Origin: Gracilinanus agilis
Lineage: Eukaryota
Direction: 5' to 3'
Assembly: GCF_016433145.1 (NCBI RefSeq)
Contig: NC_058132.1
Span: forward strand, 100,304,847-100,368,846
Length of the DNA stretch: 64,000 bases
Every line of letters begins with the position of its first letter. Position 1 is the stretch's first letter. Below the pieces are notes generated by a model. The model was not told the origin of the DNA, did not search any database, and worked only from the letters and a program-made list of their open reading frames with translations. Below, one piece after another: positions 20,881 to 42,900 of the stretch. The position numbers and the translations under genes are program-made.

Positions 20881-23800
20881 CTAGAATATACTGTTGTCTA
20901 CCAATGGGGCCCTATGTCAAGCTGAGATGAGACTATTCCTTAATACTTTATCCCCCAGCCCATGTATCACTCTAGGAGAGGAAAAACAAATTCACCTATA
21001 CCTGGACCAGTCCAGGTTGAAACCTTGAGCTCTAGGACAGGTCTCCATCCAACCATCTTCTGAGGGTTTGGGGAACAATGCCCTCTCTACTTCCAAAGCC
21101 TCATCCCACCCCTTCTTTACCTGCCTCCAAGGTGAAGAACATAATATTGAGCTCAAAATTTTTACAACAAAGCTTGGAGCTAGTAGACTTTTCTCCTCAT
21201 CTAATGCCCACTATTAACCTGCTGTTTTTCACACCATTCCTATAATTAATCAGTGGCCATTTAGAAGGAAGCAGTCACTTGCCCCCTCAAGCTTCTTCCA
21301 TTTCCCCTAACCCAAACCAGCCTATGTCCTATATCCAATCCTAACTCAACTAAAACAACTAAAAACTGTTGCAAAATTCCAAAGAACAAGCATGACATTC
21401 AAAAAGGAAATAAGAAAATACACCTCCCTCTCCATTACTTTGCTGAGAAGGGAGTAGTAGGGATATCAGTGTAAAATATAATATTTTTTTCAGTGTATTG
21501 CTATATGGAATGGCCCTCTTGGAAAAGGAAGGGAGAGGAATACAGGAAGAAATGGAATCAATGTAAAAAAATACTAATAAAATCTTATTTTTGAAGAAAA
21601 AAAAATCCTAACTCTTCCACTGAGCCCTTTGAATTCCAATTCAAACAAAGTTCCTTTCAGACTAACCTCTCCCTCTTACATTCTTTCTACCAAAGACATC
21701 TGGCCACCCTCAGGTGACCCTGTTTTTTCTTGAGCTTTTCTCTCCAGCACTCTTCTCTCACCCAACCCATTCACTGGGATTAGAGGGGGAGGGAGAATAT
21801 TCCTTGTACACCATAGTTGCTTCTAGACTCTTGCTTTGACTCCTTTGTTCATCACGCATTGCCTCTTTGGAAGTCTACTCTGAAAATTTTCACCCAATGA
21901 AAATGGTGCTGCATAGTATACTATGATGTAGAGTATACTGTAGAAAGACCCCTGGATCGTTCTCCCTTCTTTCTCAAGGACTCTATACCTGGACCACCAT
22001 TTTCCTTTCTTTCCTAGCTCATACTCTCATACATGCCAAAGAAGTATCTTCTCAAAAGACCATTTACTGGAACTGAAGCATCCAGAAAGTATAAAACAAG
22101 CTCCTGGTAACTGTGAACTTAGAAACCACCCACAGAGAAGAATTTTTAACCCTCCAAAATGATTTTCTTTCCCATTCCCCAACCCTAAATCCAAGAATTC
22201 TTTGGCTTTTCAGTGTTCACATTCCCAAGCTAAGCACATTGCTTTGCACAGGACAATTAATATTTGTGGAAGTCAAGTCCAGTGTCTCTCCCCCTTTTAC
22301 ACAGAAGGAAAAAAAAATCTCAAATGCCCATAGGTACACTTCTATCTCCCAGGAGGTGCCTATTTTCTGCCCTAAGAAGAAAAGTCAGTGAGGACAGTTC
22401 TCCCACTGGTTTCTCAAGACAATACGTTCTTCCCTATGATATTTCATCCTTTTACCCTTCGGGCCTACCTCTTCTACACTGAGATGCCAAAAGTACCCAA
22501 AACCAGGTCAGTCTTTTTGGGAAATTATTGATACCAATTTAGTGGGTGCCTCAGTGGTCCAGGACACTCTTTGAAATGGACAGTCTTTCCCATCTTAGTA
22601 ATAACTATTTCTTCTTGTTCCAAGTTATAGCTTGAGAAGGCTAAGAGACATGAAAAAGCTGAAAAATATAGAGATGCAGACCATCAGCCCCACATCCTGC
22701 TGCAGAAAACACTTGTCTTGGGGGATCAATATGTGTCCCCTCTATAGAGAACTAGCCTAATCATAGCACCTGGCCCCCTCCCCACCACAGAAGCACATAC
22801 TTCCAACATGTTCATTCATTACTTTATATATGCTAAAGGAAAATCTTATTCCGAAAAAGCCTGGTTACTTGGCATGAGGGGCATTCTTAGGACACAGGAA
22901 TGAGCTCTTGGTAACAGTAAACTTAGAAACCTCACACAGACAAAAGAGTTGTTAATCCTCCTCCAATTGTTTCCATCTAAATAATTCCTTGCCTTGAACT
23001 ATCAGTCCATATTATTTTGCCCATGACAAGGTATCTATTAATTCTAGCAGAAACTCAGCTCCTAAAAGGCCTGGTCTGTTTTGTTTTGGTCATTAGTGTT
23101 TTTAATCTCACATATGAACAAAGTGCCTTGTACATAATTGGAAGGTAATAATGTTTAAGTGAATCCAGGACTGCTCCTTCAGAAGCCCACAACTTCACTG
23201 CTCTCTTCCAGGAGGATTTTATTTTTTCCCAAAAAAGAAGAATCAAAGGAAACGGTCCTCCCATTGGTTCCCCCAGGATGAGGTACCGATGCTGCCAAGA
23301 TTTCACACACTTATCCCTTCTATCCTGTCTGCTCTGAACTTAAAGAACACAACTAGGCAGCCCTTTTGTTAAAGTTTTACATCAAATGAAGTAAGTGTAT
23401 CTCTGAGTCCAGGGCGGAGAGATTTCTAAGCCAGTCTGCTCCTCTTCTATGTTTCTGGGAAGAACTAAGGCTTGTTATTGGTGGATTCAGCCTAAAAGAC
23501 AAGAGGCAGAATACCAACTCGACCTCCTAACCAGAAAGGCACCTCTCACTTAGCGCTCTCATCTCCCCCAGAAGACCAGACTAGTAATGGCAAAGCCAGA
23601 CTTCATCACCCACTACAGAAAACAATGAAGCTTCCTTCAATAATTTGAAGACACATTGCTTTTTACACACATGCCAGGAAAAAAATCTTCCCAAAACACA
23701 ATGCCACATGCAACTAGAGCATCTAAGCACAGGAATTAGTTCTTGGCCCAAGTAAACAAAGAAATCTTCTTCAGAAAAAGAGTTTTGTTTATTTTTTAAA

Positions 23801-24329
23801 CCCTTGCCTTCTGTATGAAGTATCTCTTCCAAAATAGAAGATAAGAGCAATAAAAAATAGGTCATTGAGGCTAAGTGACTTTCCCAGGGTCACACAGCTA
23901 GGAAGTGTTTTGAGGCCATATTTACACCCGAGTAAATTTTTACCCATCTATTACCCACCAAAGCCCCCTAGCTTCCCTCAGGTGACCCTGTCTCTCTGGC
24001 TTTTCTCTCTAGCTCTGGCTAGAAGTCTCACACAACCCAAACCCTGGGAATAGATGGGGAAGGAGAATACTCCTTGTTCACCATGGTCACTTTCATACTC
24101 TTCCTTTACCTCCTTCATTCAGTACACTTTCCTCTTTGGAAGTCCACTCACAGGAAGTTTTCTACTCCATCAAAATTATGCTAGCTATAATATATTAACC
24201 CCCAGGTCATTTTTCCTTCTTTCCAAAGGATTTCTGGACATGAATAACAAATCTATCTCCCTTTCTCAGCCTAGACCCTAGTAGTAGGGGGTTTTGATAT
24301 TTATGTATATGCTTCCTTAAACTCTATCA

Positions 24330-39968: not shown

Positions 39969-42900
39969 GAGAAAGAGAGAAGAGAGAGAGAGAGAGAGAG
40001 AGAGAGAGAGAGAGAGAGAGAGAGAGAGAGAGAGAGAGAGAGAGAGATGTGACCATGCCTCAAGTCATGGGTCAGAGACTGAGCCCCAACTTACAGAAAA
40101 ACTCTTGACTTATAGCCTTCTTTCAAATTAACATTTTAAAGAAATAGTCAAGAGTTGGAGACAAAGGTTTTCAATCCAGAAATAAAGGACAGGAATATTA
40201 AATTGAATAGCCTTTACAATAGATACAAAGAGAAGAGTTCAAGGCTAGATTATCTGGAAGGAGCTGATGTGAAGATCTTTCCAGCCATTGGGCTTGACTC
40301 TGGGATACAATGGGAGAGACTTCTAAGACAAAAGCTTGAGATTTGATCACTGGATCCTTCAGGGTCAGTCTGGGACATCTCCCTAACGCAAGTTCCCAAA
40401 CAAATTCAAAAGACCTAACTCAAAACACTTGAAGCTATAAGGCTTTGGTCCTATAGGAAGAAGAATGGGAGTGGCATAATTTTGTCTTGAAGTGGGGGGA
40501 GGCGGGGACTAGCTTTTACTAACTTCTTGGAGATTTTAGTAACTACTACTAACTTGAGAATAACATACTAATTTCTCACTCTATACATCTCTACCAAAAA
40601 TCTAGATTAATAACAGCAAGGCCAAGCATCATTACCAATACTGGAAACATTGAAGTTTTCTGCATTCATCTGCCTGATGTGTCTCTTTACACATGAGAGG
40701 AAAATCCTATTCCTGAAAGAGATGGCCATGGGGGACTGGCTCATCCAAGAAACACAGGGATGAATAAAGTCTGGGCAATAGTGAATTTAGAAACATCTCA
40801 CAAATCAAAGTTTTTGATATGCAAAACAAAGTTCTCTCCTTTTGCCCGAATCTCTCCCAAGAATTCCTGGCCTGAAAATTCTAGTATACCTCTTCATCCC
40901 CATACCAGGTAACCTATTGGCTATAGCAGAAGATAAACTCCTTGAGGACCAAGGCTGTTTCGTTTTGTGTTTCTTTTTAATGTTTACACTCCTTGGAGGA
41001 ACACAGTACTATGCATATTATCTGGAAATTAATAAATATTTGCTAAATTGAATTGAATGCTAATTTAAGACAAAGGCTCTAATAAGTCTCAAAGGCCCAC
41101 AGGCTTTTAGCCAACTCCCTAGAGCCTCCTTGGGGAAGCCCTGGCACAGAGTACATAGCTGGCACTGGGGGAGCTACTCCATTCCCCCTCCTCCCAGCAC
41201 CCAAGGACATTTTTTGGATGCCCCCCCCACTCTGTCCAGCCCCCAAAGCAAGCACTTTCTCCCTAAACTCTCTCCAGTAATAGGGAAATAAGAAGGATAG
41301 ACAGCTTGAATTTGCCCTCTGGGCACTCAAACTGGGGAAAAAGTTCACCAACCCTGTCCAGAGGCTGCTTTCTCCCCAGTGAAGGAGAATCAACTGGGCT
41401 GGTTCTTACTAAAATTTATGGAAATCACATTTCACTTTATAGCCTCTCTCCATCCCCACCATCTACTTTTAGGGAATAACACTTTTGAAAATATTCTTCA
41501 CAAACAGGGTGGCTCTAACTCCAGGATCCAGGCAATGCCAAGTCAGTGCTATCCTCCTTATGGCCTGTCTTATTTACCTTAGTAATGACTAGAACTTATC
41601 AAATGTGAACTCAAGTTAGAGGGCTAAGAAATAAGGAAGAAATTAGAATCTTCAGAAAACCTCCCTACTGACAGAAGTAAGTCATCTGCCTCTTAGCTTG
41701 TCAACCTACCTGAGAACTAGGCTATTAATGGCCAGATTAATCCCTGCTGATCAGACTATAAGCAATACATTTCTTAAATTCTCTTTGAAACTGTCTTTCC
41801 ACACTTATCCAGAGGAAAACCTGGATATAGAAACCAAGCATATAAACCAATAGAAATCTTGACTTATTAAAGGCCTGGGATGAACTCCTTCAACTATCAT
41901 ACCTTCCACTGACAAGTCTCTGACCCACCAAGTTATTTCCTATTCTGTTTCTCCAGTTTCTGGAACTCCCTACCAGTTCCCATCTTTAGTTCCTTGCCAT
42001 TCTACCTGTGAAAATATCAGTGCTTTATATTAGAGATTTCTTTTTTCAAAAATGTGTATTTATATTTCTTAGGCCTTATATGTAGTAGAATAATAAATGT
42101 ATACTGAATAGCCATTTTCCAGAGGAGGTAAAAATTAAGGTGGAGAGTCCTTGGGGTACATAACATTTTCCCAAAAAAGATGTTATCTACCTAGTGAAAA
42201 ACCGCCTACAGTACAGGTTCTCTACCTCCAAAAAAAGGGCTCTATTTCCCCAGAATATTATCTTTCCCCTTCTCTCTGCCATCTCATTTTTTGATCACTG
42301 CTTTCTGAAACTGATCTCCAAATAAGTGAGCAAATGTGACTCTTTTCTGTGGCCCATCCAGTCTACCCAAGAAATGTCTACAGATTATTTTTTATATACT
42401 CATCAGTCTCCTGACTAGGTTACCCTTCATTAAGTTTTGAGACACTTGCCCATTTGTTAGAGTTTCTTCTAATCTTCAAATCCTCTCATAAATTGTTTCG
42501 TATTGAATTTAATCTTTGTGCCCCACTAACTGTACAGAATATAAGTTCATTCCTCTAAGAAGAAATAAATACACTTTCCCAGTTAGGCAGACCCCTGCAC
42601 TCTCTTATTCCAATCTCTTTCTCACTTCCCCCAACTTCCCTCTACCCTAGAGGAGGGAGGAAAGCCAAATTTAGAGGATACCAACAGCATTTGCATTCCT
42701 AAAATAGAAAGAATTAACTGGTTGCTAATGGAGGATAGAGCAAAGAGAACACCTTAGGTACAGAATTTCTAAACTTTAGCCTTGAGACATATATTGCCCC
42801 TTTGAGGATAATTTTTTCAAACCTTCTCCGGCCACCTTCCCATCCCACCCCATTACCATCTTGCAAATATTTAGGGCTGGCTGCAAAGTATTTAGCAGCT

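Follow-up and report, generated by a model that had tools for sequence, protein, structure and literature searches.

A stretch of 64,000 nucleotides from Gracilinanus agilis (RefSeq assembly GCF_016433145.1, contig NC_058132.1, positions 100,304,847 to 100,368,846 of the forward strand), hereafter called the window, contains the 5' part of the gene GDPD4, which is on the minus strand, and an array of worn head-to-tail copies of a non-coding unit, which has the GDPD4 start-codon exon to its left and a CpG-rich patch to its right. The Monodelphis GDPD4 protein could be mapped to the start-codon exon, the second exon, and 19 more exons leftward. The array had been noticed in an earlier sequence-only reading of the window, which assigned it to the 5' intron of GDPD4 and proposed that short motifs conserved in very diverged copies could mark a functional array.

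Layout of the tandem array

By using a profile of the unit, 11 colinear segments, all on the plus strand, were mapped from 22,021 to ~42,400 (6,532 bp covered in total; Table 1). Each of these segments was also found again when it was left out of the profile (11/11), with E values ranging from 1.7e-95 to 1.8e-4. Since u8 (model 49-222) adjoins u9 (213-886) in model coordinates, the two are probably one split unit, which gives ~10 units; the earlier claim of at least eight tandem copies therefore holds, and segments u5a, u7, and u8 are additional to those listed at that time. Direct unit junctions are present at u1/u2, u2/u3, u7/u8, and u9/u10, and self-comparison revealed colinear same-strand matches (59-70%) among 22.0, 22.8, 23.4, 25.3, 29.2, 32.3, and 40.6 kb. 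The anchors by which the array had been recognized do recur in the places given for them, as illustrated by the GTGAACTTAGAAAC anchor, which occurs at 22113, 22917, 29649, 32669, and 40781 on the plus strand and nowhere on the minus strand. Pairwise identity among the units is 32-65%, with a mean of 54%.

A tandem unit of nearly one kilobase was thus verified, but its length had been put at ~0.8-0.9 kb and is ~0.93-0.99 kb according to the profile. The 804-bp spacing from 22113 to 22917 was reproduced, and this spacing and that of 839 bp reflect internal deletions. A probable further copy near 21.0 kb had to be abandoned, as two profiles gave no match there at E<10; this stretch matches L2-like sequence at 24.66-24.77 kb instead. 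No positive-scoring profile match was obtained when further units were sought at 33.1-33.8, 37.1-39.0, 40.0-40.5, and 42.4-43.4 kb, and a gap of 365 N at 39,604-39,968 may conceal additional ones. As had been described, later insertions break the array: a short interspersed element (SINE), a miniature inverted-repeat transposable element (MITE), and long terminal repeat (LTR) elements were mapped between and within units, and the LTR element at 30,176-32,313 interrupts continuous array sequence. The array was not detected by Tandem Repeats Finder with a longest period of 500. One contig of a sequencing run, which may be from the source sample of the assembly, spans 21,420-23,800 with zero differences, indicating that the repeats in this part are not an assembly artefact.

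Table 1. Units of the array, inserted elements, and GDPD4 features in the window (K2P, Kimura two-parameter distance)
Feature	Position	Strand	Remarks
Unit u1	22021..22584	+	Partial, model ~327-959; leave-one-out E 2.9e-56
Unit u2	22585..23395	+	Model ~65-959; E 3.4e-65
Unit u3	23396..23790	+	Partial, model 2-~470; interrupted by SINE and L2-like insert; E 1.8e-47
Unit u4	25272..25950	+	Model ~97-959; E 3.4e-48
Remnant u5a	29085..29203	+	Model ~815-950, rest of unit mostly deleted; leave-one-out E 1.8e-4
Unit u5	29204..30175	+	Most complete copy; E 1.7e-95
Unit u6	32314..33100	+	E 4.7e-52
Unit u7	38975..39291	+	Partial, model ~640-953; E 2.6e-10
u8	39292..39447	+	Model 49-222; opening part of a unit that u9 probably continues; E 1.3e-11
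u9	40560..41505	+	Model 213-~886; holds ~240-bp dispersed repeat; E 2.4e-67
Unit u10	41506..42400	+	Edge copy, most diverged, branch 0.55; E 1.1e-19
L2-type 3' tail, example	29854..29960	+	Model ~540-690; sole dispersed part of the unit
SINE-like element, then L2-like fragment	23790..25270		Inserted; labels tentative, no Pfam match
MITE	25959..26151		8-bp target duplication GTCTAGAG
Solo-LTR-like piece and hAT-like element without left end	26178..29090	+	Labels tentative
LTR element at u5/u6 junction	30176..32313	+	LTR pair K2P 0.17
Decayed endogenous retrovirus	33840..37102	+	LTR pair K2P 0.11; env remnant (PF00429)
GDPD4 second coding exon	1904..2110	-	94% identity with Monodelphis GDPD4 over 1,904-2,050
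GDPD4 start-codon exon (coding part)	3430..3474	-	Monodelphis protein mapping
CpG-rich patch, likely GDPD4 promoter	43201..44000		Composition

The CpG-rich patch is the sole one from the GDPD4 start codon to +65 kb and lies ~0.8 kb from the last unit. Because of this patch at 43.2-44.0 kb, the array is likely to be situated at the 5' end of a long 5' untranslated region (5'UTR) intron of GDPD4. Of the earlier placement, the gene is established, and the intron is a likely reading of the CpG-rich patch. The minus strand also carries, at +71 to +105 kb, exons of a kinase that we presume from synteny to be PAK1.

Locus specificity and history of the unit

Only one part of the unit appears to be dispersed, a tail that we take from its terminal motif to be the 3' end of L2 (LINE-2). 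The profile gave 35 matches in 40 scattered loci (356,611 non-N bases), of which 32, including all 22 with E<0.1, overlap model ~540-690, in both orientations; outside the tail, no match was found at E<0.01 in these ~357 kb or in ~220 kb of flanking sequence. Two paired-anchor patterns searched genome-wide matched the array alone (3 and 2 matches), and unit queries recovered the array and, besides it, short stretches matching the tail or an insert of u5. The 240-bp insert of u9, used as a positive control, yielded 2,643 genome-wide candidates, and the genome-wide search is insensitive near 60% identity, as the u1-u2 query returned itself alone and no sister units. At the sensitivity reached, the unit apart from its ~130-bp L2-type tail appears locus-specific.

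A dispersed transposable element, for which many copies elsewhere in both orientations would be expected, was at this sensitivity rejected for all but model ~540-690. The sequence-only reading had not recognized the unit as a transposable element, which agrees with the lack of dispersed copies outside the tail. About 130 bp of the unit match copies dispersed genome-wide in both orientations, whereas this tail makes up only ~14% of the unit; and because the copies share their flanks, they arose by tandem duplication and not by retrotransposition. That the non-L2 part is the remnant of a rare, very old transposon amplified in tandem here is very improbable: copies at ~60% identity would escape the genome search, but the profile found none outside the tail in the scattered loci and flanks, and the paired-anchor patterns are confined to the array.

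The units form a near-star tree (u5a omitted and the u9 insert excised, as in the simulations below), in which internal branches account for 9% of the length and terminal branches range from 0.23 to 0.55, the longest being that of u10. Neighbouring units are 53.6% alike and distant ones 54.5%, and so there is no sign of stepwise duplication between neighbours. All insertions that could be dated are younger than the units: the LTR pairs differ by K2P 0.17 and 0.11, the MITE is 0.10 from another copy, and the SINE sets are 71-82% alike. Identity among dispersed L2-type 3' ends is 51-61%, comparable to the 54% of the units. Together, the younger insertions and the L2-like divergence of the units place the burst after one L2 insertion and before the SINE, MITE, and LTR insertions. 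If the substitution rate is taken as ~2e-9 per site per year, ~0.2-0.25 substitutions per copy would correspond to roughly 100-130 million years, about the age of old L2 copies. The accessible parts of PMC4408412 and 10.1101/081307 contain no usable marsupial rate.

Conservation and candidate functions

Comparison of motifs with spacers had been suggested as a check on the proposed function. A gamma model of rates gave alpha values of 15-20 with a gain of only 0.8 log-likelihood units. The units were compared with 129 realigned neutral simulations (with indels and identity matched at 0.54). Of these, 22% attained a best 15-column window at least as high as that observed (0.77), 28% at least as large a spread among windows, and 36% at least as high a best 8-column window. 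Windowed conservation is thus as in neutral decay, and the conserved motifs could not be upheld as the mark of a functional array. Simulations with four 20-bp blocks evolving at one-fifth of the rate produced a best window of 0.91 and 22-mers in three copies, compared with the observed 0.77 and 15; because this model overshoots the data, strongly constrained blocks are rejected. The motif-bearing parts have mean identities of 57.0% and 54.8%, the L2-type tail 57.7%, and the last third 48.8%; the motif half is no better preserved than the tail, and each motif is decayed or lost in several copies.

A mostly neutral fossil of a tandem amplification is the reading that we favour, with a probability of about 0.65. 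A 0.95-kb unit of ordinary non-coding DNA beside the likely GDPD4 promoter, which already carried the dispersed repeat tail, would have been copied about ten times in one short burst, perhaps by rolling-circle amplification or unequal crossover, with homogenization ending early. The near-star copies were then fragmented by the SINE, MITE, LTR, and other insertions and by deletions that are now seen between and within them, and have since been decaying, probably mostly neutrally. The striking anchors would mostly represent the upper tail of random survival, perhaps aided by short gene-conversion tracts.

Several observations weigh against a wholly neutral history. There is a mild excess of long exact words shared between copies (the longest being 24 nt for the pair u3/u5, 15 nt for the trio u1/u5/u6, and 12 nt for four copies), with p values, depending on calibration, of ~0.01-0.05 under uniform rates and 0.03-0.09 under gamma rates, and of 0.004-0.06 for the 5' two-thirds of the unit, these statistics being mutually correlated and uncorrected. 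Words common to five copies show no excess. Nine random sets of real dispersed repeats likewise gave no word excess (lowest p 0.09), so that the excess in the array is not simply due to a lenient simulator. A further point comes from a second species, in which a separate contig has 35 of 40 bases alike at 22,893-22,932, the GTGAACTTAGAAAC anchor; the two best matches of its loose end in the window (19/30) lie at the equivalent position of u9 and of u4, which identifies it as a unit copy. On the gene strand, finally, a donor-like site (AA|GTGAGA) is retained in five of six copies and an acceptor-like site in all six; each was equalled in 5 of the 129 simulations, and both together in 1.

The cross-species comparison covered 20,900-23,800, and therefore none of u4-u10, in two runs from one study of one species. 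In both runs, a contig is colinear with the window at 21,752-21,794, 22,458-22,526, and 22,594-22,642 (81-86%), crossing the u1/u2 junction. The part at 23,228-23,712, which includes the CACCTCTCACTTAG block, is without cover at 80% likeness, and this hole in the contigs of the two runs carries no evidential weight. Between 21,794 and 22,458, the second species is ~1.2 kb longer than the window, which represents an extra unit or an insertion.

The word excess and the second-species anchor match leave open two sources, weak constraint in some copies or short or patchy conversion tracts. If constraint were involved, the array might be a multiplied promoter-proximal regulatory module, in which two or three short blocks (around GTGAACTTAGAAAC, CACCTCTCACTTAG, and ACTAGTAATGG) are weakly selected in some copies and would serve as protein-binding sites acting on GDPD4. 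We regard this as doubtful. It would fit the distance of ~0.8 kb to the CpG-rich patch, the word excess without counterpart in the repeat controls, the cross-species paralogue match of one anchor, and the strong testis expression of mouse Gdpd4 described in PMC6744855, but the profile of windowed conservation is flat, strong blocks are rejected, the L2 tail has survived no worse than the motif half, and at least seven insertions plus large deletions have been tolerated. In its boldest form, which seems to us unlikely, a module multiplied in the Mesozoic would have kept a few blocks of 15-40 bp across copies and marsupials. It is a similarly tentative thought that such a module would be a hidden homotypic enhancer or alternative-start array of a testis gene, unseen by repeat finders and ordinary conservation scans. 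PMC6744855 also reports fertility in mouse Gdpd4 mutants, so that less is at stake biologically.

The splice-like sites bear on the proposal that each unit supplies an alternative 5'UTR exon or start site of GDPD4, which we consider quite improbable. The retained pair gives this proposal its interest, but the order on the gene strand is reversed, with the donor first and the acceptor 22 nt on, whereas a cassette exon requires an acceptor followed by a donor; this order does not suit an exon, an intron would need to be longer, and a matching downstream donor is not retained. Both sites lie in a single block and were chosen post hoc, and the donor-like site scores 5.6 bits, compared with 9.6 for a real GDPD4 donor (by a scoring matrix, the acceptor part of which is uncalibrated). 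All eight listed GDPD4 proteins begin at the 3,474 exon, and hence no coding exon in the array is on record.

A dead duplicated exon, which had also been suggested, found no backing in protein similarity or reading frame. No match to GDPD4 was obtained in the units by tblastn, three open reading frames of the units had no Pfam match, and no codon signal could be seen, as deletion length is a multiple of three in 18 of 78 cases and 3-periodicity is absent. A duplicated coding exon was rejected on these grounds.

The array might also be thought of as a tandem small-RNA host, namely a precursor array of microRNAs (miRNAs), small nucleolar RNAs (snoRNAs), or PIWI-interacting RNAs (piRNAs), since the unit size and the site upstream of a testis gene suit such clusters. 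This is highly unlikely. Rfam gave no match in the array (nine weak matches in the window overall), consensus folding over the motif block yielded -0.72 kcal/mol, the best hairpins of individual units differ in phase, and the structure conservation index was at most 0.15 in 86 windows. With no same-phase hairpin or box-bounded structure in the units, a tandem cluster of miRNAs or snoRNAs was rejected, and the small-RNA precursor proposed earlier is left unsupported; these structure tests bear on miRNAs and snoRNAs, and piRNA precursors need no structure.

Comparison with known systems leads back to a decayed tandem segmental duplication or fossil macrosatellite, which the array resembles in its ~1-kb head-to-tail units, single locus, and embedded repeat fragment, and in having its most diverged copy at the edge. 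In living macrosatellites, such as DXZ4 and D4Z4, the units are highly similar to one another, whereas those of the array are ~54% identical, interrupted, and no longer homogenized; an active macrosatellite was rejected, as the identity of 32-65% is far from that of near-identical units. The intronic tandem small-RNA clusters C19MC, Sfmbt2, and SNORD116 resemble the array in that a unit several hundred bases long, with a repeat fragment inside, is repeated in or close to a gene. Unlike them, the array has no conserved hairpin, box-bounded core, or Rfam match, and its conservation is not focused on a core of 70-100 nt. No description of the array was found in the literature, with subscription journals, supplements, and repeat databases outside the scope of this search.

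The array is an unusual but probably inert structure. If neutral, it offers a dated natural experiment, in which ~10 copies of equal age record the decay and invasion of a 1-kb tandem array. It also indicates that 'unique' mammalian non-coding DNA can conceal arrays overlooked by tandem-repeat finders, and the insertions nested in it might be used as markers in marsupial phylogeny. The weak motif signal, if real, would make the array an uncommon example of an ancient tandem amplification that has been retained in a regulatory role.

Inserted elements

Pfam searches of four fragments returned no families and lent no support to the L2 and hAT labels. The endogenous retrovirus at 33,840-37,102 is a compact 3.3 kb, with an env match (PF00429, E 1e-5) and weak Gag-MA remnants, and seems too small for pol. 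Inside the LTR element, just past the first LTR, a C2H2 zinc-finger fragment was read by eye at 30,566-30,650, which suggests that the element at 30,176-32,313 captured a piece of a zinc-finger mRNA. The hAT-like element (26,430-29,090) has a right terminal repeat and an unrecognizable left end, and one deletion seems to have taken this end plus most of a unit.

The MITE, the solo-LTR-like piece, and the LTR element are inserted at the same unit phase within ~30 bp, in two copies (25,951-26,180 and 30,170-30,180/32,313), near the likely unit boundary. The coincidence may be due to chance or to an insertion-prone site. The ~240-bp repeat at ~41,117-41,360 in u9 is ~80% alike to its best copies and has thousands of candidates genome-wide. 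Finally, the L2-like fragments at 21,133-21,923 and 23,957-24,783 are 69-76% alike with matching pieces in swapped order, reflecting independent insertions or a later rearrangement.

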